Assembly: GCA_965215365.1 (NCBI GenBank)
Contig: CBDCDS010000003.1
Coordinates: forward strand, 864,001-928,000
DNA length: 64,000 nt
Source: Gammaproteobacteria bacterium
Lineage (GTDB): Bacteria; Pseudomonadota; Gammaproteobacteria; Eutrophobiales; Eutrophobiaceae
Direction: 5' to 3'
Positions 5,470 through 33,200 of the stretch are shown here, one piece after another. Under the pieces are notes generated by a model, which saw only the letters and a program-made list of their open reading frames with translations, was not told the DNA's origin and made no database searches. The position numbers and the translations under genes were made by a program. How positions within the stretch are numbered: position 1 is the first letter of the stretch; every line of letters begins with the position of its first letter.

Positions 5470-5482
5470 ACGGGAATTTATT

Positions 5483-6611: not shown

Positions 6612-6624
6612 CCGAAAAACTCGC

Positions 6625-14318: not shown

Positions 14319-14320
14319 CA

Positions 14321-14358
14321 ACCTGAAAATGCCCTCCGTGGCATTTTCAGAGGTGGCC
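14321..14358. repeat. Hairpin fragment of MITE family B; possible bidirectional terminator between convergent genes
   Basis: CTGAAAATGCC-ctccgt-GGCATTTTCAG, homologous to 37461-37492. Confidence 0.65.
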
Positions 14359-14368
14359 TGAAGCCCCA

Positions 14369-14845
14369 CTAGCGGCGGGTAAATACGACGCTGTCGGGTT
14401 TGTTCCGCACCACCACTGTCCCCGACAGCTTGTCATGCCAGCCCTGTTTGCGCTTGTCGAACGCAATCCAGATAAAACCCAACCCAAGTGGCAACATCGA
14501 TAACAGATAACCGACATACCTGGCGATATACCGGGGCGCGGACGGCTGTTCCCCGGTCACGGCATCAACCACCTTGGCGGCGATGGCCATCTTGCCCGGA
14601 GTGGCGCCATTGAATACCCAGAACAGAATCACGTAGGCCGCCGGCAGCAGTGCCGAGATCAGAAAGTCTATAAAGAGAGCTGTCGATGCGATGTATGCGC
14701 CGCCGAAAATGATTGCAGAAAGAGGCGTAGTAACCAGCGCAATCAAAAAACCATCAATGAGAAATGCCCAGGCGCGCAGCCAGAAGCCAGCATATTCAAG
14801 ATCATCGCGTTCTGTCTTTTCCACCTGAATTATCCTCCACTGCAT
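14369..14845 (-). CDS. RDD-family membrane protein
   Basis: YAGFWLRAWAFLID, GATPGK, GWHDKLSGT motifs. Confidence 0.9.
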   Translation of the reverse strand: MQWRIIQVEKTERDDLEYAGFWLRAWAFLIDGFLIALVTTPLSAIIFGGAYIASTALFIDFLISALLPAAYVILFWVFNGATPGKMAIAAKVVDAVTGEQPSAPRYIARYVGYLLSMLPLGLGFIWIAFDKRKQGWHDKLSGTVVVRNKPDSVVFTRR

Positions 14846-14936
14846 TTGATATGTTACAGGAAACTGATTTTTAGAGGTGAGTTATTGACTATCTTACCTG
14901 TCAAGGCATAATTCCAGTATGAAAAATACACTGCAA

Positions 14937-15050
14937 ATGCCCCAGTTGACAACAGTAAAACGACCGCAAGCCCAACAAGCCGAAGGGGTGCGCCTTGACA
15001 CTGAAACAAGAGAGAACCTGAAAGGACCAGGCTTTTGGCAGGATGAGTAA
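14937..15050 (+). pseudogene. Remnant C-terminus of a type I R-M methyltransferase (HsdM)
   Basis: QQAEGVRLDTETRENLKGPGF* resembles HsdM C-termini; stop overlaps the next ATG (TAATG). Confidence 0.5.
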
Positions 15051-15475
15051 TGAACATTGACACAACTTTTCTACGTCGTTGTATTCAAAGTCTGGAAATG
15101 GGTTTTCACGAGCTCAATCAGGGTAAACAAGCGGACGATATTCTGTATGACATCTACCGCTCGGCCTGCGTCAAGGAATTTGAGTTGGTGCTGGAACAGA
15201 GCGGCAAGTTGTTGCGCAAACGCATCTCGGCCTACTTTGCCAGCAAGCGGCAAGTGGAGCGTCTGACGCTCAAAGATGTATTTCGCCACGCCGAGAAATA
15301 TGGACTGCTTGAACCCGACGCCGTGGAACGCTGGCTTGTTTATCGTGACAATCGCAACGACACCGCGCATAACTATGGTGAAAATTTCGCCGAGGGAACC
15401 CTGAAACTGTTGCCGTCGTTCATCACCGATGCCACGGCGTTGGCCGGGATAATCGAGGCAGCCAATGACGACTGA
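15050..15475 (+). CDS. HEPN-domain protein (HI0074-like nucleotidyltransferase substrate-binding family)
   Basis: KEFELVLE and RNDTAHNY (Rx4H); overlaps the MNT start. Confidence 0.88.
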   Translation: MNIDTTFLRRCIQSLEMGFHELNQGKQADDILYDIYRSACVKEFELVLEQSGKLLRKRISAYFASKRQVERLTLKDVFRHAEKYGLLEPDAVERWLVYRDNRNDTAHNYGENFAEGTLKLLPSFITDATALAGIIEAANDD

Positions 15476-15602
15476 CAGGCTGTACCTGCAACCCAAACAT
15501 CGCCGGATACTGCAAGCATTACTGCAGGAACACCTGCCCGAAGTAGAGGTCTGGGCCTACGGCAGTCGCATCACCGGCCATAGTAAAACGCCACCGGCTT
15601 GA
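15465..15602 (+). pseudogene. Minimal nucleotidyltransferase (MNT), truncated by an IS481 fragment
   Basis: MTTDRLYL...EVWAYGSRITGH, then runs into IS sequence before the DxD motif. Confidence 0.8.
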
Positions 15603-15800
15603 CCCGACCCAGCCGCACCCGCTTCGCCACGATGCGCCCGACCGTACTCTCGCTCAAAGTCCAGCCCTGCTCGCGCACCCCCACCCGCCAGAGCTTGCGC
15701 TTACCCCACAACGGATAGCGTTGGCGGTTGAGATTAATTCACACACTTAACTACCCGATTTTTTTATCTAAAGAGTCTCACTTGTTTCTGAACCCGGACA
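15574..15800 (-). mobile_element. Deleted IS481 remnant (copy 3): internal fragment plus one end
   Basis: Near-identical to about 9236-9388 joined to about 9710-9782; ends with TGAACCCGGACA. Confidence 0.85.
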
Positions 15801-15913: not shown

Positions 15914-16606
15914 ATGTTGGTCGTCATGGGGAATGCGTACCGAGGGTCGAAAGCCACGACGGGTCTGTGCCAGCCGCTCATTGCGATGATGCCGCCGCAC
16001 AGTGTGTACATTGAGACACACTTAGGCGGCGGGGCGATTATGCAGCGCAAGCCGGCGGCGTTGCGCAACATTGGGATTGATCTTGATGTGCGGGCGTTGG
16101 CGGGGTTTACGTGTGGGTATCCGGTGGAGTTGGTGCAGGGGTGTTGTCACCGCTGGTTGGCGACTTTTCCGTTTGACGGCACGGAGTTGGTGTACAGCGA
16201 CCCGCCCTACCTGCACAGCACGCGCAAGTCACGGCACCGTTACCGGTATGACTACGAGGACTCAGACCATGAGGCGCTGCTGGCGTTACTGCAGGGGCTG
16301 CCCTGTGCGGTGATGGTGTCGGGGTATCCTTCGGCCTTGTATGATGAGGTGCTGGCGGGCTGGCGCAGTGTGTCCTTGCAGGTGATGAATCAGGGCGGGG
16401 TGGTGACCGAGCGGGTCTGGTTCAATTTTGTGCCGGACCGGGTGCACTGGGTGCGCTATGCGGGGCGCAACTTCACGCACCGCCAGCAGGTCAAGCGCAA
16501 GGCTGAGAACTGGGGGCGGCGTTATCGTGACTTGCCCCCGGCCGAGCGGCTGGCGGTGCTGGCGGCGATGATGGCGGTGGAGGCACAGTGCACATGGCCA
16601 CGGTGA
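15914..16606 (+). CDS. Dam/D12-class DNA adenine methyltransferase
   Basis: YRGSK, YIETHLGGGAI (SAM-binding motif I), YSDPPY (motif IV), MVSGY. Confidence 0.85.
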   Translation: MLVVMGNAYRGSKATTGLCQPLIAMMPPHSVYIETHLGGGAIMQRKPAALRNIGIDLDVRALAGFTCGYPVELVQGCCHRWLATFPFDGTELVYSDPPYLHSTRKSRHRYRYDYEDSDHEALLALLQGLPCAVMVSGYPSALYDEVLAGWRSVSLQVMNQGGVVTERVWFNFVPDRVHWVRYAGRNFTHRQQVKRKAENWGRRYRDLPPAERLAVLAAMMAVEAQCTWPR

Positions 16607-18111
16607 ACAAGGCCTCATTGCGTGCGGAGTTCGAGGCCATCCGAATGCGTTTTAAGGCGTTGTGCGCCGACGGCGCGCTGAGTCCCGAAGGGCGTGCGCT
16701 GTTCGAGTCGATGTTGCTGCTATTCGAGTTGCTGCTGGCGGTGTTCTTAGAGAAGACCACACCGAAGGGGGCGCACAACTCCAGCCTGCCCAGTTCCCGC
16801 ACCGACCCCGATGACAGTGCGCGCACACGGCCCGGCAAGCAGGGCAAGGGGCCGCAGACCGGGACGGTGCCCAGCGCGTCCCGGCGCGTGGTGGCTCAGA
16901 CCCGCACGGTGCCCGTGACCGGCTGCCGGGCCTGCGGGCATGATCTCAAAGGCACCGCCCCCACCGGCCATGTGCGACGAGTCAAGGTCGATATAGTCTT
17001 CGAGACGACCGAGTTGACCATTGACGCCGAGATAAAAACCTGTCCGCGCTGTGGCACTGAGACCCACGGGGCGTTTCCCGATGACATGCCGGGGCCTTTA
17101 CAATACGGCCCTGGCATCGTGGCTTTCGCCACGCACCTGTTAACGGCCCAAATGCTCTCGCTCAAACGTACGGCGCAGACACTTCATGCACTGACCGGGC
17201 GCGCCGTCGCCGAGGCGACCTTACTGGCCTGGCTCACGCGGGTGCATGAGGCCCTGGCCGGGTGGGAGCGGGCGGCTATCGCCCGCCTGCTCACAGAGCC
17301 CGTGCTGCACGCCGATGAGACCTCCTTGCGCATCGACCGCACACAACACTGGCTGCACAGCACCAGTGCCGGGAACCTGGTACTGAAACACTGCCACCGC
17401 AAGCGGGGCGGGGACGCCCTCAAGGACATCGGCATCGTCCCCCGCTACGGCGGTGTTCTCGTGCACGACCGCTGGGCCAGCTACTTCGCCTATGACAACT
17501 GCGAGCATGCCCTGTGCGGCAGTCACCTGTTGCGTAACTTGGCCTTTATCGAGGACGCCCACGGCCATGCCTGGGCCCAACGTATGAGCCGCCTCCTGCT
17601 CAAGACCTGCCGACAGGTGCGCACACATAAAAACAAGGCACTCAGCGAGACCGACTACCAGTCCCTGCGCACCCGCTACCGGACTATCCTGACACAAGCC
17701 AAACGGGAACTCCCCACACCCCCGAAACGGCTCACCGGCCAACGCGGACGGATTGCCCAATGTGAGGCACAAAACCTCCATGATGCCCTCGTCAAGTACG
17801 AAACCGAAGTCCTCCGCTTCGCCCGCGACCCCAACGTGCCGTTCACCAACAACCGCGCCGAACGCGATATCCGTATGGCTAAAGTCAAACAAAAAGTCTC
17901 CGGCTGCTTCCGAACCACCGCCTACGCCGACACCTACTGCCGCATCTCCAGCTACTTGCAGTCTATGACCCTGAAGGGCTACAATCCCCTCGCCGCCATC
18001 GAGATAGCACTCAAGGGAGACGCCGCCACCATGGTGGAAAAACCGCTCAAAAATAAAACGGTTAAGAAAAACCAGATCAGAACAAGAGATCAGGGTAAGG
18101 GGGGCGAGTAG
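16588..18111 (+). CDS. IS66-family transposase (TnpC-like)
   Basis: NSSLPSS, CxxC...CPRC zinc ribbon, LHADET, LVHDRW, FTNNRAERDIR. Confidence 0.93.
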   Translation: MHMATVNKASLRAEFEAIRMRFKALCADGALSPEGRALFESMLLLFELLLAVFLEKTTPKGAHNSSLPSSRTDPDDSARTRPGKQGKGPQTGTVPSASRRVVAQTRTVPVTGCRACGHDLKGTAPTGHVRRVKVDIVFETTELTIDAEIKTCPRCGTETHGAFPDDMPGPLQYGPGIVAFATHLLTAQMLSLKRTAQTLHALTGRAVAEATLLAWLTRVHEALAGWERAAIARLLTEPVLHADETSLRIDRTQHWLHSTSAGNLVLKHCHRKRGGDALKDIGIVPRYGGVLVHDRWASYFAYDNCEHALCGSHLLRNLAFIEDAHGHAWAQRMSRLLLKTCRQVRTHKNKALSETDYQSLRTRYRTILTQAKRELPTPPKRLTGQRGRIAQCEAQNLHDALVKYETEVLRFARDPNVPFTNNRAERDIRMAKVKQKVSGCFRTTAYADTYCRISSYLQSMTLKGYNPLAAIEIALKGDAATMVEKPLKNKTVKKNQIRTRDQGKGGE

Positions 18112-19509: not shown

Positions 19510-21030
19510 TCATTTTTGCAGCTTGGCTATAATTGTTTCAATAATGTTTAACGCCTCTGCTGGAGACGGGGAAATTTCAATCAGTGTTTGAAATACTCTC
19601 TGATATATCTGTGTTTCAGGGGTGGCACTTCCGGGTAGCGCGTCCCGCCTAGGGAGATTTTTTAACTCAAGCAGACTTGCTGCTAATGTCTCAAGCGCGC
19701 CGAGCTCATTTTTTTTTCCGCCCGATTTTTCAAGACCCGCTTGCAACGTCGCAATATCGCCCAGTTTTTTGTCGATGAACCATTCCACCGTCTCTTCGGC
19801 AAGGTAAGGGGATGCTGCAAGCTCCGAACTTGCTTGCACTTCCTGAAGAAACGAGTGAAATTTTCGCTTTCTGTTGCGTTCGGCAGAAGCGGCGCGACAA
19901 CGCTTTTCTATATTGCACGTGATAGCACCAAGCTGATTTTCCAGGTTGCGGGTATGCGGGCCGGGTTCAAAATAATCCCGCTTCGCGTTGGGAATAATAC
20001 GCGCGTCAAGAACATGAATTTCCGCCACACACCAACGATTAAAGCGGTCTTCTGTAAAGAGGTGATCGAACAATGTCTCATCGCCAATCTGGATATTACC
20101 GATGCGAGCGCGAATCCCTCTGACAGCGGTCTTTTTCGGCAACGCGCCAGCATAAGACGAGTGTGCAATCCAACCGATGGCGGCAATCCGGTCTGTTTCT
20201 ACAGCCGGTATGGAGATACTTTCAAACTCGGTAAACTCGAACTGTTCCGGCAATGCTCCATTTTTGCCATGCGGCCTTGTTATCGACATGTCCTCCCCGT
20301 TGAGGTGAACGTTCAGTTCCAACGGAGGATGCTCTTCAGGAAAGATATTGGCGATGTTGCCGGTGTATTGAAAATTCGGAATAAACGGAACCGGACATGT
20401 TTCTCCAATATACTCTCGCACAACCTTTGCGTTCAGGATCGACCCTGCTGCGAAACGGGCTATCCCGTCAATGTCCACCTGAAAAAACCGCGCTGGCCAC
20501 TCACTTCCTGACGTGGTCTCAGTGCTGACGCATTCCGCAATGAGTTGTTCCACAGACAGACCAGCAGTCACCTTTTTTCGTAAACCTTTGCCGTCCCAAC
20601 GCACAGAAATAACGGGCTCATCATCCTGTTGACGGGTGTAGAAGGTGACTGAATCGCTGAAAGCCAATCCAGACAGTCTGCCTATGCCCCTGAAGCCGCG
20701 GTCAACCCCGACACGTTTGGTGCTGTTTGCAACAGGTGTCAGTTCCCGCAACGCTTGCGTGCGCGCTAGTCCCAGACCATTATCCCGTATGACTACGCGC
20801 CTGTCGGCAGGGTCGATGTTGATTTCCACCTTGCCCGTATTTGGCGCGTCTGACGCAACGATAGAGTCCGCCGCGTTTTGAATGTACTCGCGGTAAATGC
20901 TCAACGGCGCAGTATGTATGCCGGACGTGAGCAGACTTAACAGGTTACTCCCTGTCAATCTATCGGGCAGGAAGGCGTCTGTAATGATGAGGTTGTTGTG
21001 TTCCGGCATCTCGCACCTGTCAGGAGCCAA
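19510..21030 (-). CDS. GHKL (Hsp90/MORC-like) ATPase
   Basis: YREYIQNAADS (N box), IRDNGLG (G1), GFRGIGRLSG (G2); helical C-terminus; exact start uncertain. Confidence 0.88.
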   Translation of the reverse strand: MAPDRCEMPEHNNLIITDAFLPDRLTGSNLLSLLTSGIHTAPLSIYREYIQNAADSIVASDAPNTGKVEINIDPADRRVVIRDNGLGLARTQALRELTPVANSTKRVGVDRGFRGIGRLSGLAFSDSVTFYTRQQDDEPVISVRWDGKGLRKKVTAGLSVEQLIAECVSTETTSGSEWPARFFQVDIDGIARFAAGSILNAKVVREYIGETCPVPFIPNFQYTGNIANIFPEEHPPLELNVHLNGEDMSITRPHGKNGALPEQFEFTEFESISIPAVETDRIAAIGWIAHSSYAGALPKKTAVRGIRARIGNIQIGDETLFDHLFTEDRFNRWCVAEIHVLDARIIPNAKRDYFEPGPHTRNLENQLGAITCNIEKRCRAASAERNRKRKFHSFLQEVQASSELAASPYLAEETVEWFIDKKLGDIATLQAGLEKSGGKKNELGALETLAASLLELKNLPRRDALPGSATPETQIYQRVFQTLIEISPSPAEALNIIETIIAKLQK

Positions 21031-22675
21031 CGCGTTGTTTCCTGGGCGCTAGTCTGTTGTGCTCTGCTGTTGATCTTTGTCCGAACTCTTCCTGTTCGTA
21101 CAGCCCGGCATCTTCCACCATCTCTTCCGCGTCTGGCAATACCGGATCTGGATTGAGCCGGGGAAACAGTGCCACGACGCGTTGATCATCAATGATCGTG
21201 GTATCTTTTGTGCCTAGCGCGTGGTACCTGATGACCTCGCGCACCTGCGTATCCACGCCCAGCGAACCGGCGAGGCGCAGGTAGTAGTCAGCGCGCGCCT
21301 TTTCGCCACCGGTGGGTTCTGCAAGGTAAGTCAGCAATTCTTCTTCCTGGCTTTTTGACAGCTTCCGACGCAAGGCATCATAGGCCTCTTTAACAGGCTG
21401 ACCAGCCCCGCTTTCAAAATACTCCCGGTGGAATATCATGCCTGACGGATAGCTCAGAAGGCGCATAAATTCCTCGTTATTTTTACCAAACGCGCGTTGA
21501 AAAAAGGCGGGGTTCCCACTGACCATGCCGTGGGTGGCCTGCAGGATAACCTGGAACGTGCGCAGGTAGTAGCGGTTCCAGCGTGGCCCGACATGCGACC
21601 GATCTTTCAAAGTAACCGGCTGGTAGCGCATGGGGAAAGACCAGATACGAATGCCCAGTTCGTCATTCAGCTTTATGTTCAATGCCAGTCGCTCGTACAA
21701 GTCCTGCGGGGTATCCTTGAAATTGTAGAGCATATAGTTCGACAAAGAGGTAATCCTGTTGTCTGCCGCCATGCGCACCGACGTTTCATATACCTTGCGC
21801 ACGCCGATGTGGTCGAATGCAATACGCAGGGGGCTGAGGCAGATAGTAGCCATTTCCTTGAGATACATTGGCGACTTTGCCAGGATGCGGGCGTCCACCC
21901 CTTGGTTGAAGTCTACCCGGCGTTTTACCGGCCTGCCGTTGCGCGTCAGGGTAGCGCCCGGAGTGAAGCCCAGCGCCCTGATTTCTGCAATGATCTCCCG
22001 GTAACGGCTGGACGCAGTTATATTGTTGTCCATCAGGATCAGATCTTTCTTTTCACCGTGTCGGTCTGCAATATCTTGCACCAGAGCAGCCAGCGACGGC
22101 ATTTCCCTTTGTGTACCTTCCAGTTTGGGCACACCGCAGAAATGGCATTTGCGAATACAGCCCCTGGACGCATAGCAAAAATAGGCATCGTGGACCGGGT
22201 AAGTGTAGTCAATGTGCTCAAGGACACTGTAATCTGGAGTCTGTTCTTCAATGGGGACGCCGGTCGTGTCCTCTGCGCCAAAATCACCATCGGCGGCGGA
22301 CAGTGACAAAGCCTGTGCCGGCGGGCCATCCAGCAAGCCCGCAATAAACCGCACACCCGCCCAGCGTGGTTCGTTGATGAACTCCTGCAGCATAAGGGAA
22401 GCTGCGATACCCCCTACAAACACACGCTCCGACTGGTTGCCAGCGGCTTGTATGGCAAAGTCAATAGCTTGCGCGGTGCGCTTCCATTCAAAACTGAACA
22501 GCGTGGTCACATAGACCCGGTCCCACACCTCAAGCAACACTGCCCTGTCATCGCCCTTGACAAGTCTGACGAAATCGCCCCGCTTACGGTGATACGCCGC
22601 TAGCTTCATCAGGCCGAGGGGCGGATATTTATTGCGGTAGCCGGGTTCTACCAAGAGGACTCTGAAGCGGGTCAT
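21020..22675 (-). CDS. Radical SAM protein with a B12-binding-like N-terminal domain
   Basis: SRGCIRKCHFC (CxxxCxxC); YPPLGLMKLAAY N-terminus; LMDNN, VDFNQG. Confidence 0.9.
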   Translation of the reverse strand: MTRFRVLLVEPGYRNKYPPLGLMKLAAYHRKRGDFVRLVKGDDRAVLLEVWDRVYVTTLFSFEWKRTAQAIDFAIQAAGNQSERVFVGGIAASLMLQEFINEPRWAGVRFIAGLLDGPPAQALSLSAADGDFGAEDTTGVPIEEQTPDYSVLEHIDYTYPVHDAYFCYASRGCIRKCHFCGVPKLEGTQREMPSLAALVQDIADRHGEKKDLILMDNNITASSRYREIIAEIRALGFTPGATLTRNGRPVKRRVDFNQGVDARILAKSPMYLKEMATICLSPLRIAFDHIGVRKVYETSVRMAADNRITSLSNYMLYNFKDTPQDLYERLALNIKLNDELGIRIWSFPMRYQPVTLKDRSHVGPRWNRYYLRTFQVILQATHGMVSGNPAFFQRAFGKNNEEFMRLLSYPSGMIFHREYFESGAGQPVKEAYDALRRKLSKSQEEELLTYLAEPTGGEKARADYYLRLAGSLGVDTQVREVIRYHALGTKDTTIIDDQRVVALFPRLNPDPVLPDAEEMVEDAGLYEQEEFGQRSTAEHNRLAPRKQRVGS

Positions 22676-23676
22676 TGGCTTATTTTTTCAATCATACTGT
22701 ATATTCTGTCGACTTCCCGCTTAAGTTTACGAGTATCCTGTTTTATTGCATTTAGTGTGTTCTGGTCTGATTTTTTCAACTCTTTTTCTTCAATAGTCTC
22801 GATGGTGCCAAGTGCGCGTCTGACCCGTTGCTGTACCTTGCTGGTTTTTGCTTCTTGATAGGCGTCATCAAAAGTCAAATCTTCTTCAATATATTTTTTC
22901 AGAATCTTGGGTTTGCCTATGATTGCTGGGAGCTTGTTTCTCAGTTCCAGAGCTGTGAAATCATTTTCATCATTATCTAGGCCAGCATGCCTGATCCTTT
23001 TCAAGAGAAGATTTTTCAAGCGTCCATCTTCTTCGGTTGCCTGCACAATTTTCCGTGTTGTGACCATAACCTCGTAATAGCTGAAGTGAGATGGCTCCTC
23101 ATCCCCATTTCTCTTCATTTGATCAATAACTCTGACCCTGTTGCTGATAGTTTTCTCAGTCTCACCAAACAACTTGGCGATATTTGTTTCTGTCCAACCC
23201 CTCTCTTTCCTTACATAGGCAAGATTGGCTTTTTCATACGCTGACCATTGCGTCTTGCCTTTTACGTGAATCTGGTTAAGAAATGCAAATTGCTGTTCAT
23301 CCGTTAGCTTGCTGACTATGTCGCATTGGATCAGTCCCCAATCCTTTTCGGGCTGCTTTTTGTGGAGTTTACGATAGACGGCAAGCCGAGAATTGCCCTC
23401 GATAACTTCCATAGTGTCGTGGCGAACCAATATCGCTTCCAGGAGGCCCCCGTGTCTTTTTATCTCAGGCTCCAGATTTTTAACGCTGGCCTCCTTTAGA
23501 AGTTTTTCGTATATGAGATCTTGCTGTTCCTCTTCCGATAATTCGTTAAATTCCGATATTCCATGGGTACACGCATACACCCGCGGATTGTCGGACAGGA
23601 ATTTCAGTTTGTGTATTTCCAGAAAATCAGAAGAAACTTCGATGTTCTCTCCCATTATTTTTATGGAACGAGTCAT
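22672..23676 (-). CDS. ParB/Sulfiredoxin-like domain protein
   Basis: DNPR, GGLLEAILV, VIEGNSRLA motifs; HTH-like segment downstream. Confidence 0.8.
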   Translation of the reverse strand: MTRSIKIMGENIEVSSDFLEIHKLKFLSDNPRVYACTHGISEFNELSEEEQQDLIYEKLLKEASVKNLEPEIKRHGGLLEAILVRHDTMEVIEGNSRLAVYRKLHKKQPEKDWGLIQCDIVSKLTDEQQFAFLNQIHVKGKTQWSAYEKANLAYVRKERGWTETNIAKLFGETEKTISNRVRVIDQMKRNGDEEPSHFSYYEVMVTTRKIVQATEEDGRLKNLLLKRIRHAGLDNDENDFTALELRNKLPAIIGKPKILKKYIEEDLTFDDAYQEAKTSKVQQRVRRALGTIETIEEKELKKSDQNTLNAIKQDTRKLKREVDRIYSMIEKISQ

Positions 23677-25175
23677 GTGATCGGTGTCTCCTCAAAGTTT
23701 TGGTTTTGGTTGCGTTTGCTGGGTGCCAGAATACGTTTCAGTTCGCCAGACAGATCAGCGTTAAACATCTGAGTAAATTCGGTGCCAGATATGTCTCCCT
23801 GCACCAGCTGCGCCGCTTGATGCTTCGCATTCAACAACGTATCCACCCATTCGTCAATAGTATTGTTCGCTGTCAGGTTATGCACGAAACAGTCGTCAGT
23901 TTGGGAAATTCGGTGAATGCGGTCCTGGGCTTGCAAGTAATCGTCGAGGCTGAAACTGCGGTCAAAAAATACCGCATGGTTGGCAACAGTGAGCGTCAAA
24001 CCCTCCTTTGCTGCACCAGGTGTGGCAATCAATATTCGATTGTCGTTATCGGTTTTGAATTTCCCGACCGCTTCATTGCGTTCTGCAATAGTCAAATTGC
24101 CGTGCAGTTTTTGTGGATTGTAATGTTGCAACCTGTCACTCAGCCACTCCACATTAGCAATAAAACTGGTCCATACTATAGCTTTGCTTGACGAAAGAAT
24201 GTCTATTTCCTGAAACAACTCGAACAGTTTCGTATATTTCCCCGGATCGCTTTTGTACGCTTTGTCCACCAGCGCGGGATTCGAAGCACATTGCACCAAC
24301 CGCAGAAGTTGTTTCAGGATACTTTCCACCTCATCAATAACTACCTCTCCATCAACCACAAATTCGTGTGCAAGAGTATCTCTATAAGACTCATAAATGG
24401 CGGCTTGTCTAGGCTCCATTTCAACAGGATGTGTCAAGATCATTTTGTCTGGCAGTTCCAATCCCGCAGTTTTTTTTGTCTTGCGTATGGAGAACGGCTT
24501 TAGTTTCTGCAGGATACCGGAGAGTCGGTCAGCGTACTCATGTCCGGTATGTTGTGTTTTCGGTAGATCAAAATCATTTTCAAATTCGGCGAAGGAACTG
24601 CCGAGCGCTTGCCCATCATCAAGGAATCTGATCTGCGACCAGATGTCGTAGGGACGATTAGCAACAGGTGTGCCGGTCATAATAATGCGGCGCGTAAAAC
24701 CATCTGCAATGGTGAGAAAGTCCTTTGTAATCCTGGCTTCTGGATTTTTTATTTTTTGGCTTTCGTCCAGAATGGCGCCAACCCGGCAGGTATCAAGGAA
24801 CAGCCTTAATAACTCAAAATTCGCCGAGACCAGTTCATAGTTCGTAATGTAAACCAGTATGGGAGAATTTAACGCGATGCTGTTTTCACGTCGATTACCG
24901 GATAAGATTTTTGGAGTTATGTGTGAATGAGCGACCACTTCTTCGAACCAGTTTTGTACCAGCATTTTCTTGGTTATAACAAACACCGTGTCAATAACAT
25001 CTGCCTCCAGCCAGTGTAATAATAAATCGACCGCTATCTTAGTTTTTCCCAATCCTTGTTCGTGAAATATCGCGGCGTAGGAAAGCGATTTAACCGCCCT
25101 TACAGCGTCAACCTGATACGGGTAGGCATCCAGTTTGGGCGTTAACTTCGGGGGTTTTCTTAGGTTAAAAGCCAC
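23673..25175 (-). CDS. SNF2-family (SF2) helicase/translocase
   Basis: EQGLGKT, ILDESQKIKN, MTGTPVAN, EGLTLT, QAQDRIHRISQ. Confidence 0.92.
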   Translation of the reverse strand: MAFNLRKPPKLTPKLDAYPYQVDAVRAVKSLSYAAIFHEQGLGKTKIAVDLLLHWLEADVIDTVFVITKKMLVQNWFEEVVAHSHITPKILSGNRRENSIALNSPILVYITNYELVSANFELLRLFLDTCRVGAILDESQKIKNPEARITKDFLTIADGFTRRIIMTGTPVANRPYDIWSQIRFLDDGQALGSSFAEFENDFDLPKTQHTGHEYADRLSGILQKLKPFSIRKTKKTAGLELPDKMILTHPVEMEPRQAAIYESYRDTLAHEFVVDGEVVIDEVESILKQLLRLVQCASNPALVDKAYKSDPGKYTKLFELFQEIDILSSSKAIVWTSFIANVEWLSDRLQHYNPQKLHGNLTIAERNEAVGKFKTDNDNRILIATPGAAKEGLTLTVANHAVFFDRSFSLDDYLQAQDRIHRISQTDDCFVHNLTANNTIDEWVDTLLNAKHQAAQLVQGDISGTEFTQMFNADLSGELKRILAPSKRNQNQNFEETPIT

Positions 25176-25603
25176 TGTATTCCGCCGTGAGAGTCAAGCA
25201 GCCACAAATCACAGGTGTCAAACACTTCCAACTTCGTGTTCTTGACTTGCAATTCCATACGCATAAACCGGAGCAGAGTTTTAGCGCGAGTTGCGCCAAC
25301 ACCCGTTACCACGAGAATAAAATAACCCAGTTTTTGCCTTTCCAGATGGCTTATGAAAGAGGTCAGTTGCGCGCGGGTATGCGGGCTGTCAATGTCATTA
25401 TCTGTTTTAGCCTCTGCGATAACAACCAACCCCTCACAATCTTGCCGAGCATATACATCCGGCCTGTAACCACCAATGAATGGCGGCAGTTCGTCGCCGG
25501 GAGACTGTTGCAAATCAGCGTTGAGCTTGAGCCCCGGGTAGCGTTGCACAAGTTTCTCGACGATTGACTGAACTAGACTCCTGTGGGCATCACTTTGAGA
25601 CAT
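25160..25603 (-). CDS. Small PD-(D/E)xK nuclease-fold protein
   Basis: RPDVYAR...IAEAKT. Confidence 0.7.
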   Translation of the reverse strand: MSQSDAHRSLVQSIVEKLVQRYPGLKLNADLQQSPGDELPPFIGGYRPDVYARQDCEGLVVIAEAKTDNDIDSPHTRAQLTSFISHLERQKLGYFILVVTGVGATRAKTLLRFMRMELQVKNTKLEVFDTCDLWLLDSHGGIQWLLT

Positions 25604-26624
25604 TACTTAACAGGTGTTGCAACTGTTCTTCCAGATCTTCAAGTGCTTGTACTTGTTCTTTGGCATCATCGTGTTCTCTATCCATAAGGTGACGCAGTTC
25701 GGAGAGGGGCATGTCGTCTATACGACGCGCCAGCGTCTCCGCCAACTGGTAAATCGATGCACTCCGTAGCGTTACCTTGCTCGGCGCTCCTCCCTTCTTT
25801 TTGTCGGCCTTGTTGTCACATACTTTGATCGCGTCCTCTATTGAACGAGGCCCACCGTCAAGAAACTTTTCCTTTGCTTCTTCGTCGCGCAAAACTTTCG
25901 GTAACTGACGTACATCGGCCAGACGGTATATTTTGCCATCCTTAATCCATCCGCCAAAGTCCTCCATCTCAAGTCCGGCTTCAAAAATAGCTTCCTTGAT
26001 GCCCGGTTTTTGTAACTCAACGAAACCGCTGAAACGGTCAATGTGGAACGCGGCATCGTCAACCAGCTCTCGGTAGTAATCATTCATATCGTGGTATGCG
26101 TCAATTTGCCGCTCGATATCCTTTCTATTGCCACCGCAGAGGGCGATCATCTGGTCGTAGTCCATAAACTTCTGGTTGCGTAGATAATGCAGATACCTCG
26201 CTTTTTCGTAAGCCGGCCACTCTCGGGTGCCGACAAGATGCGTCGACACGCGAATTGCTTCAATGTCTTCCTGCCTCGCGTTATCAAGCACTATGGCATT
26301 GATCTCATACCAGTTGCCGGGCGCACCTTCCTTGAACAGTTCCTTATAGATTGCAAGCCGGGTATTCCCGTCTATGCAAACCCTTCTCTTTCCATCGTGG
26401 TTGACGGTAATCGGCACAGTGATTCCGCCGTTTGCCCGAATTGAGCCTCTGAGGCGGTTATACGACGAGGCGCCATTGGATTCTTCTGTGGCAGAGCGCA
26501 AAGCAAAATGAATACGTTCTGCGTTCAACCCATCACCGTATTTTTCGAGGGCTTTTTTTATTCGGGGGTTGTCCGTGTCGAAATCTATGGTTTCGACTTT
26601 CAGCATTTCAAACTTTTCTCTCAT
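25590..26624 (-). CDS. ParB/Sulfiredoxin-like domain protein
   Basis: DNPRI, GGITVPITV, CIDGNTRLA, WPAYEKA (paralogous to WSAYEKA in 22672-23676). Confidence 0.8.
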   Translation of the reverse strand: MREKFEMLKVETIDFDTDNPRIKKALEKYGDGLNAERIHFALRSATEESNGASSYNRLRGSIRANGGITVPITVNHDGKRRVCIDGNTRLAIYKELFKEGAPGNWYEINAIVLDNARQEDIEAIRVSTHLVGTREWPAYEKARYLHYLRNQKFMDYDQMIALCGGNRKDIERQIDAYHDMNDYYRELVDDAAFHIDRFSGFVELQKPGIKEAIFEAGLEMEDFGGWIKDGKIYRLADVRQLPKVLRDEEAKEKFLDGGPRSIEDAIKVCDNKADKKKGGAPSKVTLRSASIYQLAETLARRIDDMPLSELRHLMDREHDDAKEQVQALEDLEEQLQHLLSNVSK

Positions 26625-26743
26625 CGTCTGTCACCTGACGTTAATGTGATCTTCCTGTATTTTGTCAGAATCAACCTATGCGTTGGCTGACAAGTGTAAC
26701 TATGCCGGTCAGTATATCTTTGTGACCAACTGATTGCAAGGAG

Positions 26744-27877
26744 TGTCCAGGTTCAATACATATGAGACTCAGAGGCAGGCTGTGTGAGTTGTTGATAATA
26801 CTCCATTGGGGTTAATAAACCAATACCGTCATGCGGGCGGTAGGTATTGTAGTATTGCTGATACTCGGCCAGTTTGCGGTTGATGGCGGCCACGGTCAGT
26901 GGACCCTCGTAGAACGGATAGAACTCATAGCGGCTGGTGGCATTGGCGCGTTCTACACAGCCGTTGTATTCGGGTTTTTTCGGGGGCAGCACGTACAGGG
27001 GGATTCCTAAGTCCTGGCAAGCCTGCTCGAACTCATCTCGGAACTCCGAGCCGCCATCGACCTGGATAGAACGGATGGGAAACGGCGCCTCACCGAGCAG
27101 CGCTTTTAAGAAGCGCCGGGCATTGCCACTGGTGGCCCGACTGTAGGCTCGCAGCGCACTCCATTTGCTCACCGGACAGACGGCCTTGAACTCCTTCACC
27201 GTGATGCCGTCCGTGAAGCCGACACTCATGTGGTCTATCTGCATCAACTCCCCTGGCGCCTTAGCCTTCATCCCGTAGCGCCAGCGCTTGGCATGATGGG
27301 TAAACGCCCGGCGGCGCTTAGGCTTCACCCGGCCATAGTAAAACGCCACCGGCTTGACCCGACCTAGCCGCACCAGCTTCGCCACGATGCGCCCGACCGT
27401 ACTCTCGCTCAAAGTCCAGCCCTGCTCGCGCACCCCCACCCGCCAGAGCTTGCGCTTGCCCCATAACGGATAACGTTGGCGAAGGTGCAAGACCTGCTGC
27501 TCGTGCTGGCGCGTCCATTGCGGCACACGCCGCCGCCGCGGCGCACGGGAGCCACACCCCAGACCCTTCAGCCCATGTTCACGATACCGCTTCAACCAAC
27601 GGTAGTAGGTCGCCCTCGACCCACCTACTGCTGCCAGTGCCGTCGCCTCACCACACCCATCCTCGCGTAACGTCGCAACTAATTCCAACTGCTTCAAACG
27701 ACCGCGCGCGTCAGCATCGGTAGTATCATCGACGCGCCAACTGCGATATGATTTCACCCGCTTACCTTTTGATCTGCATCGGGTAGTCCTCCTGTGTAAG
27801 TTAATCGAAATCACTTTACACACTTCACTACCCGATTTCTTTATCTAAAGAGTCTCACTTGTTTCTGAACCCGGACA
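26744..27877 (-). mobile_element. IS481-family element, copy 2
   Basis: Same ends and near-identical sequence to 8651-9782; no flanking duplication; ATG-CAG-ATC-AAA-AGG-TAA gives a premature stop from the copy-1 start. Confidence 0.92.
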
Positions 27878-28465: not shown

Positions 28466-29557
28466 ATGGCTAAACTGGAAAGTCTCACCGTTCACGGCTT
28501 CAAATCGATCCGGTCACTGGAGGACTTCAAACCCGGGCCTCTTAATGTTCTTATCGGGGCAAATGGCGCTGGGAAGAGTAATTTCATTAGTCTGTTCAAT
28601 ATGCTGGCACGTGTTGTCGAGCGGCGCTTTCAGGTTTTTGTTGCTGAACAGGATGGCCCGGAAGCAATGCTTTTTGGCGGCAGGAAGCGGACTGAGCGTA
28701 TGGAAGTCGAGCTCACCTTTGGCAAAAACGCTTATGGTTTCTCTCTTGTTCCGGCAGGTAACCGGCTGATATTCGATCAGGAGAAAATGCGTGTTTTTGG
28801 CGACTGGAAAACGTCCACGCACACACTAGGCAGCGGTCATGACGAATCCAGGCTGAAAGATGCAGAAGATACCGGGCAGAGCAGCTTTGCCTCTTACGTG
28901 TCGGCTGCGGTAAGGAGTTGGCGGGTGTACCATTTCCATGACACCAGTGCGACAGCGCCGATGCGCCAGTCACAGGCAGTTCGGGACAATATGTATCTCA
29001 AACCTGATGCAGGCAACCTGGGGCCTTTTCTGCGCTATTTGCGCGAGCAGCACCCGGAACATTACCGGCAAATCATGGAAACAGTCCGGTTGGCAGCGCC
29101 ATTCTTCGACGATACGATTTATCGAAAGAATACCGATGAGCGGATGGAACTGGAATGGTCCCACAGGAATGACCCTGATACGGTACTGGGACCGCGTCAG
29201 CTTTCAGACGGGACACTTCGTTTTATCTGCCTCACGACTCTACTTCTGCAACCACCAAGCCTGCTGCCGGACTTGATACTTGTCGATGAACCTGAGCTGG
29301 GCTTGCATCCTTACGCGCTCAGCTTATTGGCTGAGATGTTAAGACAAGCCTGCGATGCAAGACAGCTTATTGTTTCAACACAATCCGCCGACCTTGTTAG
29401 TGAACTTGCTCCCGATGACATCGTTGTGGTCGACCGCCAAGATGAGGCGTCCTGCTTCAGAAGACTGGATGCTGATAACCTGGAGGAGTGGCTGCAAGAC
29501 TATGCGCTGGGCGATATGTGGAAGATGAATATCCTTGGTGGCAGGCCTGGCCAGTGA
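28466..29557 (+). CDS. ABC-type (AAA_21/AAA_15-like) ATPase
   Basis: GANGAGKS, LSDGT signature, ILVDEPELGLH, STQS. Confidence 0.92.
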   Translation: MAKLESLTVHGFKSIRSLEDFKPGPLNVLIGANGAGKSNFISLFNMLARVVERRFQVFVAEQDGPEAMLFGGRKRTERMEVELTFGKNAYGFSLVPAGNRLIFDQEKMRVFGDWKTSTHTLGSGHDESRLKDAEDTGQSSFASYVSAAVRSWRVYHFHDTSATAPMRQSQAVRDNMYLKPDAGNLGPFLRYLREQHPEHYRQIMETVRLAAPFFDDTIYRKNTDERMELEWSHRNDPDTVLGPRQLSDGTLRFICLTTLLLQPPSLLPDLILVDEPELGLHPYALSLLAEMLRQACDARQLIVSTQSADLVSELAPDDIVVVDRQDEASCFRRLDADNLEEWLQDYALGDMWKMNILGGRPGQ

Positions 29558-30240
29558 TAAATATCATTGTCGTCTGCGAAGGCCAGACTGAAGAGGTTTT
29601 TGTAAATAAGGTGCTACTGCCAGAACTGTTAACACGAGACGTATTTATCCAGCCGAGACTGATTGCAACATCCAAGCGGTCGAAAGGGGGGGCGCTTGCC
29701 GGACAAAGGGTGCTACGCTTTCTCCGTAATACTTTGCGAGAACGCAAAGATGCTTATGTGACAACACTCTTCGATATGTACGGGTTGCCCGCCGGCTTTC
29801 CCGGCCTTTCGGCTGCTATTTCTGAAACCGATCCATTGGCTCGGGCTACAGCAATTGAAGTCGGTTTCCATGCAGAGGTCATTAGTGAAGCAGAGTGTCG
29901 TGAAGGCCGGTTCATACCACATATTCAGCCGCACGAATTTGAGTCCCTGCTTTTCTCAGACGTATCGCAGTTTGCCCAAGCCGAGCCGACATGGAAACCG
30001 TTCGTCAGCCAGTTTGAAACACTTGCACAATCCGCCTCAAGCCCTGAGCACATTAACGATGGACCTGAAACACATCCTTCGGCGCGTCTCCGACAGCTGC
30101 GTCCTCCATACAAAAAGGTGAGCCATGGGTATGCCATCTCTTCAAGGATTGGCCTTGAGTGCATTCGAAATAAATGTCGCCATTTTAACAAGTGGTTATC
30201 ACGCATTGAAAGCGTTCAACCGTTGAAACAGGCAGGGTAG
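29554..30240 (+). CDS. DUF4276-like TOPRIM-fold protein
   Basis: [31 protein letters not shown]; GTGA overlap with the ATPase. Confidence 0.8.
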
Positions 30241-30244
30241 CTCC

Positions 30245-33200
30245 ATGAGCGTGTTTACGGAGTCAGTCGTAGAAGACGCCGCCCTCGATTGGCTTCGAGG
30301 GTTGGGCTACAACGTCATCGCCGGGCCGGATATGCCGCCGGGGCCTCATGCGCTGCGGGAAAGTTATTCCGAGGTGGTTTTTGCTTCAACCTTGCGCGGC
30401 GCCGTGAGGCGTATTAACCCGAACCTGCCGGATGAGGCCGTGGATGACGCTTGCCGCAAGCTGCTCGGCCCGGAAGGCGCCACGTTGGCGGCTCGTAATC
30501 GGGCTGTTCATCGCATGCTGGTGGATGGGGTCACAGTGGAGTATCGGGACGCTGACGGCGCAGTCCGGTGGGCACAGGCGCAGGTGCTTGATTTTGATGA
30601 TCCCGATAATAATGACTGGCTGGCTATCAACCAGTTCACAGTCACCGAGAACGGCCATGAGCGTCGTCCCGACCTCGTGCTGTCCGTCAACGGCCTGCCG
30701 CTGGCGCTGATTGAACTCAAGAATCCGGCCAGTGAGGAAGCCACGATCTGGAGCGCCTGGCAACAACTCCAGACCTACAAGAACGAGTTGCCAACCCTGT
30801 TTGCTTTCAATGTGGCTCTGATAATCTCGGATGGCGTCCAGGCCCGTATCGGTTCGCTCACTTCCGGTAAGGAATGGTTCAAACCGTGGCGCACAATTGA
30901 TGGCCAGAAACCAGCGCCGGTGTTTCTGCCCGAACTCCAGGTATTGATCGAAGGTGTGCTGGAAAGGCGCCGCTTGCTCTCCCTGTTGCGTGACTTCATT
31001 GTCTTTGAGGATGACGGCAGCGGCGCGCTGGTGAAGAAGTTGGCCGGCTACCACCAGTTTCACGCGGTGGCAGTGGCGGTAGCAGAAACCTTGCGAGCCG
31101 CTGAACTCAGGTTGGCTGAGGAACCGGGGCGGCATGAAACAAGGCGTAACCCGGGTGGCGCCGCCGGCGATCGTCGTATTGGTGTCGTCTGGCATACTCA
31201 GGGTTCAGGCAAGAGCCTGACCATGGCGTTTTATGCGGGACGAATTGTCCGGGAACCGGCGCTGAGGAACCCGACCGTCATAGTATTGACCGACCGTAAT
31301 GATCTGGACGACCAACTGTTCGGCATGTTTGCCAGGTGTGGGGACTTGTTGGGACAACCACCTGCACAGGTGGAGGATCGGGCGGATTTGCGGGCGAAAC
31401 TGGCGGTAACATCGGGTGGCGTGGTATTTACCACTATCCAAAAGTTTTTTCCGGAGGAAAAAAGCAGTCGCTACCCGGTGCTGTCCGAGCGCCGCAATAT
31501 CGTGGTCATTGCCGATGAGGCCCATCGCAGCCAGTACGATTTCATTGATGGCTTCGCCCGCCACCTGCGGGATGCGCTCCCCAACGCTTCTTTTATCGGT
31601 TTCACCGGCACGCCGATTGAACTCCAGGATGCGAACACCCGGGCCGTGTTCGGTGACTACATCAGCGTTTACGACATTCAGCGGGCGGTTCAGGACACTG
31701 CGACGGTGCCCATCTACTACGAGAGCAGGCTTGCCAGACTCGCACTTGATGAGCATGAACGCCCGCATATCGATACCGGTTTCGAGGAAGCTACCGAAGG
31801 GGAAGAAATTGCGTGCAAGGAAAAGCTCAAAACCAAGTGGGCGCAACTCGAAGCGATAGTGGGCGCCCATAAGCGTCTGGCGCTGGTGGCGCAGGACATC
31901 GTTGCACATTTTGAAGATCGCCTCGAGGCTATGGCCGGCAAGGCGATGATCGTTTGCATGAGCAGGCGTATCTGTGTCGAGCTTTATCGCGCACTGGTGC
32001 GGTTGCGTCCGGAATGGCATCACTATGACGACGACCAGGGTACGCTCAAGGTGGTAATGACCGGCGCAGCTTCCGATCCGACGGAGTGGCAGGCACATAT
32101 ACGCAACAAGACCCGACGCGAGATGCTGGCAAAACGGTTTCGCAACGCCGACGACCCGTTCAACATGGTACTGGTACGCGATATGTGGTTGACTGGTTTT
32201 GACGCACCCAGCTTGCACACCATGTACATCGATAAGCCAATGCGCGGGCATGGGCTGATGCAGGCCATTGCGCGGGTCAACCGGGTGTTCAGGGACAAAC
32301 CCGGCGGGCTGGTGGTCGATTACCTGGGTGTTACCCAGGAACTCAAACAGGCGCTCGCAACCTATACGGAAAGCGGCGGTGCCGGGCAGACGGTGCTCAA
32401 CCAGGAGGAAGCGGTGGCGGCGATGCTGGAAAAATACGAAATTTGTTGCGGCCTGTTCCATGGCTTTGATCGTTGCGGATGGCATTCTGGTTCCGCAACA
32501 GAACGACTGTCCCTGCTGCCGGCCGCGCAGGAACACATCCTCGTACAGGAGCACGGCAAGGAACGTCTTGTCCAGGCCGTGCGCGCACTGTCCCAGGCAT
32601 TTGCCCTGGCTGTGCCGCATGATGACGCGCTGCGTATTCGCGACGATGTGGCGTTCCTCCAGGCTGTACAATCGGCACTGTCCAAGCGCGCTTCGACCGA
32701 AGCACAACCCCTGGAGGACCTGGAACATGCCGTTCGGCAGCTTATATCCCGCGCGGTGGCCTCGGCGGGAGTAGTCGATATTTTTGCCGCCGCCGGATTG
32801 GAAAAGCCCGATATTTCTATCCTCTCGGATGAGTTTCTTGCTGAGGTGCGCGGAATGCCGCAACGTAACCTCGCAGTAGAGTTACTACAAAAGCTGTTGC
32901 AGGGGGAGATTTTTGCCCGCCGCCGCAAAAACATCGTCCAGGCCCGTTCATTTGCGGAGATGCTGGAACAGACCCTGCGTCGTTACCAGAATCGCGCGGT
33001 TGCGGCCGTGCAGGTTATTGAAGAATTGATACGGCTTGCGCGGGAGTTGCACGCGGCGAACGCACGCGGCGAGCAACTGGGTCTGGGGGAAGACGAACTG
33101 GCTTTCTATGATGCCCTGGAGACTAATGACAGCGCGGTGCAGGTGCTCGGAGATGAGATTCTCAGAACCATCGCACGGGAACTGGTAGCGACTGTGCGCA

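Follow-up and report, generated by a model that had tools for sequence, protein, structure and literature searches.

A mobile gene cluster pairing a radical SAM enzyme with an Hsp90-like ATPase and ParB-superfamily proteins as a probable anti-phage conflict system

A stretch of 64,000 nt from a gammaproteobacterium of the family Eutrophobiaceae (assembly GCA_965215365.1, contig CBDCDS010000003.1, positions 864,001 to 928,000), hereafter the window, carries at 19510-26624 a cluster of six genes. They encode two proteins of the ParB/Srx superfamily (ParB1 and ParB2), a small candidate nuclease, an SNF2-type translocase, a radical SAM enzyme (rSAM) and an Hsp90-like GHKL ATPase. Judged from gene content, relatives and neighbourhoods, the cluster appears to be a widespread, mobile, multi-gene conflict system for which no name was found, and its targets are probably phages or plasmids. 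It is made of two parts: rSAM and the GHKL ATPase, often with a ParB-superfamily protein, form a core that spreads on its own, and the ParB1-nuclease-SNF2-ParB2 genes are an add-on that depends on this core. The preferred mechanism, to which a probability of about 0.4 is given, is that of a modification-restriction-like system in which rSAM would be the DNA writer.

All six genes were recovered as intact, co-oriented open reading frames (ORFs) on the minus strand, and the domain assignments made for them in the first-pass annotation were borne out by profile, motif or structure matches, the 147-aa nuclease as a candidate (Table 1). That annotation also had every junction between the genes overlapping. 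Two ATGA overlaps (TCAT on the plus strand, at 23673-23676 and 22672-22675) can be read directly, whereas the remaining three, of 14, 16 and 11 nt, hinge on the choice of start codon (GTG or TTG). A promoter-like site was found 5' of the ParB1 start, but the promoter and terminator scan of the region gave 13 sites against 7.8 +/- 2.9 in shuffled sequences, which is not clearly above expectation. The absence of a DNA methyltransferase, noted earlier, extends to the whole window, where no N6_Mtase match occurs, and the operon likewise has no ParA.

The core was recognized by its conserved synteny. The rSAM family is large: in a collection clustered at 90% identity, at least 7469 sequences match at E <= 0.001 among the 8000 candidates scored, and the representatives at 50% identity number 1699 at E <= 1e-3, 817 at <= 1e-10 and 260 at <= 1e-30. 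An rSAM-seeded scan of genome contigs, on which the six proteins were mapped by tblastn, provided 31 genome loci from Gamma-, Alpha- and Betaproteobacteria, Nitrospira, Dehalococcoidia, Acidobacteriota, Verrucomicrobiota and others. The GHKL gene adjoins rSAM in 30 of these loci, the sole miss being a 3-kb contig. ParB1, SNF2 and ParB2 are all present in 14, and one locus (L012) holds a decayed remnant; in 16 others the core stands without the ParB1-nuclease-SNF2-ParB2 arm, with HEPN, PIN, HerA-like or AIPR genes nearby. Other arms found near the core are a PIN_8 protein with a second GHKL, a HerA-like protein with a GHKL, and an AIPR protein. A DGQHR/DndB-type protein is encoded directly upstream of rSAM in ten loci and a DGQHR-HEPN fusion in seven; counting ParB modules, DGQHR and DGQHR-HEPN proteins together, a ParB-superfamily partner is present in 24 of the 31. 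The DGQHR protein of plasmid pNL1 matches TIGR03187 at 7e-45, and one natural DGQHR-rSAM fusion was found among the 150 best rSAM representatives (P0201, 791 aa; DGQHR at residues 8-287, E 1.5e-35, and rSAM at residues 312-718). A genome of the same genus (L003) carries all six genes at 77-90% identity in another flank, beside an acyl-CoA dehydrogenase gene. Synteny conserved in dozens of unrelated contigs lies far beyond what chance ORFs would produce.

The dependence of the arm on the core was seen from the other direction. A ParB1-seeded scan of metagenomes gave at least 491 relatives, and the best 80 were kept, of which 51 loci were informative and 29 uninformative, mostly because of short contigs. 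rSAM is present in 48 of the 80, and in three more a GHKL gene is found at the contig edge. Not one of the 51 informative loci is without the core, no locus combines the full four-gene arm and at least 5 kb on both sides with a missing rSAM, and all seven plasmids carrying ParB1 also carry rSAM. The arrangement of the two parts is variable: among the 48 loci, 25 have the arm upstream of the core in the same orientation (a DGQHR gene intervenes in 13 of these and not in the other 12), 15 have a divergent and 5 a convergent arm, and in 3 the core comes first. The description of the six genes as a single operon unit has to be amended: the set consists of two modules, and the position and orientation of the arm vary. 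One locus counted as uninformative (L047, 10001-15629) has a ParB1 homologue (60% identity) followed by 4.7 kb in which neither a nuclease nor an SNF2 gene occurs; no other lone copy was encountered.

Two further groups of genes recur around the core. GHKL paralogues form dyads with PIN_8 proteins (~630 aa) or HerA/FtsK-like ATPases beside it (Table 1), and these GHKL-PIN_8 and GHKL-HerA dyads may be additional, uncharacterised two-gene systems. The c7 family, of ~210 aa, recurs either directly behind GHKL or next to the ParB arm (Table 1; also in L055, L056, L093 and L102). The c7, c8 and c9 families near the core have no Pfam match; in NCBIfam, c8 has a marginal HerA match and c7 has none.

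The rSAM protein is composed of an N-terminal B12-binding-like Rossmann domain, the cluster motif CIRKCHFC, a helical C-domain, a disordered linker and an acidic tail. Exactly three cysteines are invariant among 23 sequences (C173, C177 and C180), and this CxxxCxxC motif together with fold matches places the protein in the radical SAM superfamily, although Pfam Radical_SAM (PF04055) scores it at 20.1 bits, below the cut-off of 29.5. Searches with an AlphaFold2 model (predicted local distance difference test, pLDDT, 80.5) point to enzymes with a similar N-terminal architecture: Foldseek returned TsrM (1.3e-9), MgmA, MiaB, OxsB and AprD4, and VIA ranked AprD4 (Z 20.0, root-mean-square deviation 3.6, 358 aligned), MgmA (19.1), MiaB (~18), TsrM (17.0) and OxsB (16.7). 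The N-domain superposes on those of TsrM, MgmA, OxsB and CysS, and equally on those of AprD4 and MiaB, which are not known to contain cobalamin. The B12-binding family PF02310 is matched below threshold in 4 of 14 longer rSAM homologues, and no Pfam family was recognised in the extra domains of the long homologues. A methylthiotransferase identity (MiaB/RimO/MtaB) was rejected because the cysteines of the auxiliary cluster are absent, none being invariant within residues 1-160; with the RimO model the protein reaches 18.7 bits, where 357 would be required. A search of the ESM Atlas returned only clusters named 'radical SAM protein'. rSAM is the slowest-evolving of the six proteins (median 62% identity), and ParB2, GHKL and the nuclease evolve fastest (median 35-38%). 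The acidic tail, (E/D)E-x-VEDAGL, is found in 19 of the 23 aligned relatives, being missing in the four most distant, and is kept even in loci without a ParB or DGQHR gene. By its sequence it looks like a docking peptide, and GHKL is the only constant neighbour.

ParB1 and ParB2 are paralogues (hhalign probability 100, E 4.8e-49) with a common W-x-AYEKA motif. Both have an NPR-type motif and a GxxR motif, which we take to be box I and box II of the ParB/Srx superfamily; NPR and GN(T/S)R are invariant in both families, and in ParB1 N19, P20, R21, G86, N87 and R89 are invariant among 13 relatives. Neither protein has a Pfam match at 0.01. ParB1 matches the NCBIfam ParB family TIGR03764 at 2.8e-5, and its profile finds ParB (4umk, 1.7e-4) and sulfiredoxin (0.033) weakly in the PDB; ParB2 matches the ParB-like phrog_1033 at 9e-10, and its profile finds Noc (7ol9, 7.8e-4), also weakly. 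Lying directly upstream of rSAM, ParB2 fills the slot that many relatives give to a DGQHR/DndB-type protein. An identity of ParB2 as a divergent DndB was considered and dropped, as hhalign shows no similarity to the DGQHR family.

The GHKL protein has an N-terminal Bergerat ATPase domain, an Hsp90-type middle domain and long C-terminal helices, and these features assign it to the GHKL/Hsp90-like ATPases. It matches HATPase_c_3 at 2.9e-7 (31 bits, cut-off 25), and a profile of 24 relatives finds HtpG/Hsp90 in the PDB at 3.3e-17. With an AlphaFold2 model (pLDDT 84), Foldseek placed Hsp90 first (1.6e-16), with matches to Hsp90, TRAP1 and GRP94 at ~1e-15, over the N-terminal and middle domains. 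E48, N52, D55, D83 and G85 are invariant in the family. The protein was not taken as an HtpG orthologue, since the HSP90 family model NF010683 matches at 5.9e-12 and 44.8 bits against a cut-off of 455. The N-terminal 27 residues have no predicted structure (pLDDT < 50); because of this disorder, and because the closest aligned relative starts later, translation may start at the ATG of codon 8.

The 147-aa protein is a candidate PD-(D/E)xK nuclease on the basis of its motifs: in 9 of 9 relatives P48, D49, A65 and K66 do not vary and position 64 is taken by E or D, and the match to an AHJR-like restriction endonuclease (3e-4, 20.8 bits) is below the Pfam cut-off of 26.1. Assignment of the next protein to the SNF2 family is clear, with SNF2-rel_dom (2.1e-28, 99.7 bits) and Helicase_C (6.1e-16, 59.1 bits) both above cut-off and GLGKT, DESQ and QAQDRIHR intact. 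It is a bare motor and matches the DNA helicase family phrog_62 at 8.1e-99.

Evidence for mobility comes from the distribution of rSAM, which is present in only 4 of the 125 further family genomes and 2 of 22 of the genus, and on 17 plasmid records, seven of them conjugative, with rhizobial and sphingomonad plasmids included. Plasmid pR132505 of Rhizobium leguminosarum WSM1325 has a version of seven genes that includes ParB2 as well as DGQHR, and pNL1 of Novosphingobium aromaticivorans combines PIN_8-GHKL, DGQHR-rSAM-GHKL and DGQHR-HEPN. Both species offer carriers that are harmless and can be cultured, N. aromaticivorans DSM 12444 being another named natural carrier strain beside WSM1325. Among IMG/VR viral contigs, seven have the full set and 11 have the GHKL-rSAM pair in reversed order. 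Neighbouring genes were scanned at 17 loci (94 of 127 selected ORFs of >= 200 aa within 5.5 kb, with L024-L029 left out), and matches to PADLOC include DRT, RmrA, Mokosh-like, type IV restriction endonuclease, DndH-like, GajB-like and AbiU proteins, as well as MzaA, SoFic, AriA, Tiamat, parts of MADS and PDC candidates. Phages also carry the enzyme by itself. The window rSAM matches phrog_9298 at 3e-40, and stand-alone homologues of ~300 aa, picked by exact match to NYMLYNF or DFNQG[VI]D, occur on many viral contigs (L150-L176; phages PQ571302 and KM983328). They have neither the C-terminal domain nor the tail, and no partner gene accompanies them constantly; where their neighbours were inspected, genes for DNA methyltransferases, PAPS-reductase-like proteins, DUF5131 proteins and SSB were found. 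The phage homologues sit where phages keep DNA-modification genes. On two viral contigs (L132 and L149), an rSAM homologue of 467-493 aa precedes a second radical SAM protein of another kind, ~411 aa long (Radical_SAM 6.7e-13, Radical_SAM_N2).

In the writer-restriction mechanism, module 1 (ParB2, rSAM and the Hsp90-like ATPase) would mark the DNA covalently as self. The DNA would be engaged or opened by the NTPase of the ParB superfamily (ParB2 in the window, in many relatives a DGQHR/DndB-type protein), the Hsp90-like ATPase would serve as an ATP-driven clamp or assembly factor, and rSAM would act through a 5'-deoxyadenosyl radical, possibly assisted by cobalamin. Module 2 (ParB1, the PD-(D/E)xK nuclease and SNF2) would be the restriction arm, which loads, translocates and cuts unmarked DNA. 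DNA would thus be the substrate, the self-mark the product, and module 2 the part that discriminates between marked and unmarked molecules. This reading is favoured because the arm depends one-way on the core, because DGQHR proteins partner with rSAM and in one case are fused to it, and because nuclease arms are swapped around a constant core. It is favoured also because arm and core are often separate transcription units, because phages have captured bare rSAM among modification genes, and because rSAM evolves slowest while ParB2, GHKL and the nuclease evolve fastest. To our knowledge, DndB and DpdB are the only DGQHR proteins that have been studied, and both belong to DNA-modification modules. 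The first-pass annotation had rSAM either writing a self mark or making a nucleotide product, and of these the genomic context points more to the mark. In its most far-reaching form, which is somewhat doubtful, no other radical SAM enzyme would have written a covalent epigenetic self-mark before, and the chemistry would go beyond SAM-dependent methylation, phosphorothioation and deazaguanine exchange. rSAM would be loaded on DNA by ParB-superfamily and Hsp90-like proteins, its mark would be read by interchangeable nuclease arms (SNF2 with PD-(D/E)xK in the window, HEPN, PIN or HerA types in other loci), and phages with the bare enzyme would counterfeit it.

Several observations weigh against a DNA-writing role. 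We know of no radical SAM enzyme that modifies DNA bases as a self-mark, and spore photoproduct lyase is a repair enzyme. As to cobalamin, the window rSAM has no match to PF02310 at E <= 0.01. The analogy to DndB and DpdB is indirect here because the window has no DGQHR match (TIGR03187, PF14072) and ParB2 is unlike the DGQHR profile. No sequence-specificity domain was identified in the cluster. Modification-only loci are almost absent, and a nuclease-like gene is found in nearly every complete locus, so that a sensor-and-effector design fits too; moreover, since GHKL paralogues pair with PIN_8 or HerA-like proteins, rSAM apparently stands in an effector slot. Finally, the number of neighbouring ORFs that match PADLOC at 1e-10 (19 of 94, in 11 of the 17 loci) is a raw count without a background.

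The main rival is a sensor-switch-effector design without self-marking, which is held to be unlikely. The Hsp90-like ATPase would then be an infection-triggered switch and rSAM the effector, producing an antiviral nucleotide analogue, depleting or altering nucleotides, or directly damaging the nucleic acid of the invader, while the ParB proteins, SNF2 and the nuclease would sense and degrade foreign DNA in parallel. Besides the near-constant nuclease-like gene and the dyads of GHKL paralogues, which suggest a 'GHKL + effector' plan, it draws on the presence of OxsB, an enzyme acting on deoxyadenosine phosphates, among the structural neighbours of rSAM, and on the existence of rSAM-based defences. 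Viperins are one such defence, making antiviral nucleotide analogues; Ophion is another, according to its preprint. However, an effector that acts on free nucleotides would have no need of a ParB-superfamily protein, yet 24 of 31 loci have one, and in a single case it is fused to rSAM; stand-alone phage homologues among DNA-modification genes would be odd for a suicide or antiviral effector; the conservation of rSAM is unusual for an effector in an arms race; and protection explains more simply why the nuclease module depends one-way on the core.

It is improbable, though compatible with any mechanism, that the system has already been described under another name. The PADLOC models used date from 2023, and a preprint (bioRxiv 10.64898/2026.10.19.760177) refers in one sentence to a three-gene neighbourhood 'PAACC + HSP90 + Radical SAM' in an immunity context. 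This HSP90-like and radical SAM pair corresponds in composition to the core of the cluster and is possibly the same dyad, but that sentence describes no rSAM family and no ParB, SNF2 or nuclease partners, and the window cluster is without a third gene of the PAACC kind; c7 could be the cyclase-like PAACC. The ParB-HEPN fusion of pNL1 (Saro_3948) appears in a 2013 list (PMC3710099), and the DGQHR-HEPN fusions of the genome loci are of the Saro_3948 type. On the other side, none of the system models of PADLOC (2023) and NCBIfam (release 20, June 2026) fits the six proteins. NCBIfam has no equivalog for five of the six, SNF2 having only far-sub-threshold matches to the helicases of other systems, and RefSeq names are generic ('radical SAM protein', 'DGQHR domain-containing protein', 'ATP-binding protein'). 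No named system of this composition was found in the full-text literature, with subscription journals and newer DefenseFinder models outside that scope, in keeping with the first-pass annotation, which knew of none.

A function for the mobile elements themselves, whether protective DNA modification of plasmids and prophages, an addiction or exclusion module, or a maintenance device based on a ParB-like clamp, seems more improbable still. The 17 plasmid records (seven conjugative), the viral contigs, the stand-alone phage homologues and the ParB-superfamily proteins, which are typical of plasmids, could all be read in this way. Location does not discriminate, however, because defence systems are common on plasmids and prophages; a ParA or centromere-type partner is missing, chromosomal copies are numerous and stand beside recognised defence genes, and the nuclease and SNF2 arm resembles restriction arms, with a helicase core of the ZorD/DpdE type. 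That the six genes are neighbours by accident, in an island rich in insertion sequences (IS) that gathers unrelated genes, is hardly credible given that the set recurs in several arrangements in 14 genome, 48 metagenome and 7 viral-contig loci of distant taxa, that start and stop codons overlap, and that the same six genes lie in a different flank in L003.

If the writer-restriction mechanism is true, a widespread defence system would rest on radical reactions, and a DNA modification not known so far could come to light through it. An Hsp90-like ATPase would gain a role in nucleic-acid immunity, and the rule, seen in Dnd and Dpd, that DNA-modifying enzymes work with NTPases of the ParB superfamily would be extended. 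That the nuclease arm depends one-way on the core is a concrete prediction, open to test. Even with rSAM as an effector, the combination of a radical SAM enzyme of the B12-domain type and an Hsp90-like ATPase would be new among defence designs.

In the window, the cluster belongs to an island of ~14.9-33.4 kb, flanked by maeB and RDD genes on one side and by esterase, gatB/gatA and mreBCD genes on the other; GC content is 0.44-0.50 over the cluster and ~0.60-0.66 in the left flank. As annotated earlier, the cluster lies between IS elements, an IS66-family transposase gene and an rve-type IS (Table 1). The 3' remnant and the last full copy of the rve-type IS bracket both the IS66 element and the six genes, and this bracketing may reflect IS-mediated capture or rearrangement. 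A composite transposon made of direct IS copies (15.8-26.7 kb) was set aside, one of the copies being a remnant. No tRNA was found in a scan of the window, and there is therefore no tRNA-linked integration site. Also in the island are a DUF4372 fragment and an NTase_sub_bind gene, probably one half of a nucleotidyltransferase/HEPN toxin-antitoxin pair. The cluster had further been placed inside a broken type I restriction-modification (R-M) locus. An intact HsdR is indeed present without HsdM and HsdS (the nearest N6_Mtase and Methylase_S matches lie outside the window, >170 kb away), and insertion of the cluster within such a locus is inferred only. Standing alone, HsdR does not make up a type I R-M system and is an orphan restriction subunit with an embedded AAA_21/DUF4276 ATPase pair. 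Farther away, at 6880-11796, an IS copy lies among minus-strand genes that encode a UvrD-like fragment (410 aa), a TPR protein (184 aa) and an Hsp70-like protein (678 aa); this group may be a second conflict cluster that has been disrupted.

Table 1. Positions of the six genes, their motifs and surrounding features in the window, and of recurrent gene families in related loci.
Feature	Sequence	Positions	Strand	Basis or remark
ParB1, ParB/Srx-superfamily protein, 344 aa	window	25590-26624	minus	ORF, ATG start
Small PD-(D/E)xK nuclease candidate, 147 aa	window	25160-25603	minus	ORF, ATG start
SNF2-type translocase, 500 aa	window	23673-25175	minus	ORF, GTG start; motor core only
ParB2, second ParB/Srx-superfamily protein, 334 aa	window	22672-23676	minus	ORF, ATG start
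Radical SAM enzyme (rSAM), 551 aa	window	21020-22675	minus	ORF, ATG start
Hsp90-like GHKL ATPase, 506 aa	window	19510-21030	minus	ORF, TTG start
Promoter-like site 5' of ParB1 start	window	26711-26739	minus	9/12 consensus match; weak evidence
ParB1 motifs NPR; DGNTR; WPAYEKA	window	26562-26570; 26358-26372; 26199-26219	minus	
147-aa protein motifs RPD; EAK	window	25457-25465; 25406-25414	minus	
SNF2 motifs GLGKT; DESQ; QAQDRIHR	window	25041-25055; 24756-24767; 23910-23933	minus	
ParB2 motifs NPR; EGNSR; WSAYEKA	window	23581-23589; 23386-23400; 23227-23247	minus	
rSAM cluster motif CIRKCHFC	window	22136-22159	minus	residues 173-180
rSAM family motifs DFNQGVD; NYMLYNF	window	21893-21913; 21719-21739	minus	
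rSAM acidic tail EEMVEDAGL	window	21101-21127	minus	residues 517-525
GHKL motifs REYIQNAAD; DNGLG; GFRGIGRLSG; PNAKRDYFE	window	20866-20892; 20770-20784; 20668-20697; 19966-19992	minus	
rve-type IS, full copy	window	8651-9782		same orientation as copy at 26744-27877
NTase_sub_bind (HEPN-type) gene	window	15050-15475		1.7e-16
rve-type IS, 3' remnant	window	15574-15800		same orientation as full copies
IS66-family transposase	window	16588-18111	plus	DDE_Tnp_IS66 2.1e-42
rve-type IS, full copy beside cluster	window	26744-27877		direct repeat family; transposase domains
AAA_21, DUF4276 and HsdR genes	window	28466-33376		Pfam domains
HsdR, 1043 aa	window	30245-33376		intact
GHKL paralogue dyad	L038 (pNL1)	4120-7628		
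GHKL paralogue dyad	L037 (pR132505)	12218-15734		
GHKL paralogue dyad	L023	5246-8676		
GHKL paralogue dyad	L009	14017-17172		
c7 copy	L014	6697-7317		
c7 copy	L015	13199-13873		
c7 copy	L007	13221-13826		
c7 copy	L028	1264-1899		

Compared with known defence systems, the nuclease and SNF2 genes resemble the DNA-degrading arms of type I Zorya, where ZorD joins SNF2 to an Mrr-like nuclease, and of DISARM, where DrmD is the counterpart. ZorD is the best PADLOC match of the window SNF2 (3.9e-49, helicase core only), but the NCBIfam ZorD model scores 75.4 bits against 1500, no ZorA, ZorB or ZorC is found among the six proteins, and the nuclease is encoded by a separate, overlapping gene and not fused as in ZorD. 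For DISARM, DrmD, which likewise aligns over the helicase core only, scores 49 bits against 950, with no other Drm match and no methyltransferase in the window. The GHKL protein shares the Bergerat fold, the Hsp90-type N-terminal and middle domains and the defence-island context of Tiamat, prokaryotic MORC/paraMORC and Hsp90-like conflict proteins, and the tree in the Tiamat preprint places 'putative antiphage Hsp90-like proteins' beside Hsp90. The PADLOC TmtA model, however, covers only GHKL residues 28-120 (4.3e-5); the protein is without DUF3684, DUF3883 or a fused nuclease, has 506 aa against ~1300-1600 in TmtA, and, unlike other GHKL defence ATPases, has an obligatory radical SAM partner. 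A radical SAM enzyme in a defence-type cluster is also found in viperins, Ophion and HXS. Similarity to viperin is limited to the core barrel (VIA Z 9.4-9.8), whereas the cluster rSAM has a B12-domain/MiaB-like architecture. Ophion consists of rSAM, PHP and PRTase (Ophion preprint), partners that differ from those of the cluster, and the rSAM of HXS is reported to mature a peptide effector.

The closest parallels are with DNA-modification systems. In the Dnd/Ssp phosphorothioation systems, which comprise DndABCDE along with DndFGH, PbeABCD, SspE and others, a DndB-type (DGQHR) protein accompanies the modification core, as it does in relatives of the cluster, and the core occurs with alternative restriction arms or none, the two modules of Dnd being reported as decoupled (PMC10853773). 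The DGQHR proteins of the relatives score 28.7-33.4 bits with Pfam DndB (cut-off 29.1), but no DndA, DndC, DndD or DndE match (PADLOC, Pfam) is found among the six proteins, and, unlike Dnd, the window has ParB2 in place of DndB and radical SAM chemistry in place of a PP-loop sulfur transferase. Dpd comprises DpdA/B/C and the restriction genes DpdD-K, with DpdA and DpdB acting in 7-deazaguanine DNA modification. Like the cluster, it is a modular, mobile island, in which a DGQHR ParB-superfamily NTPase stands beside the DNA-modifying enzyme and an SNF2-like helicase (DpdE) belongs to a separate restriction arm. The DGQHR protein of the relatives matches the DpdB model at 4.4e-11 but at 42 bits against a cut-off of 300, and the window SNF2 matches PADLOC DpdE at 2.2e-38 over the helicase core only (NCBIfam DpdE, 16.6 bits against 500). 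No TGT-like DpdA or DpdC-type match is found among the six proteins; the modifying enzyme of the cluster would instead be a radical SAM enzyme, and its Hsp90-like ATPase is obligatory. Altogether, the cluster is a member of none of Dpd, Dnd, Zorya, DISARM, Tiamat and type I R-M, and in its logic it is Dpd/Dnd-like.

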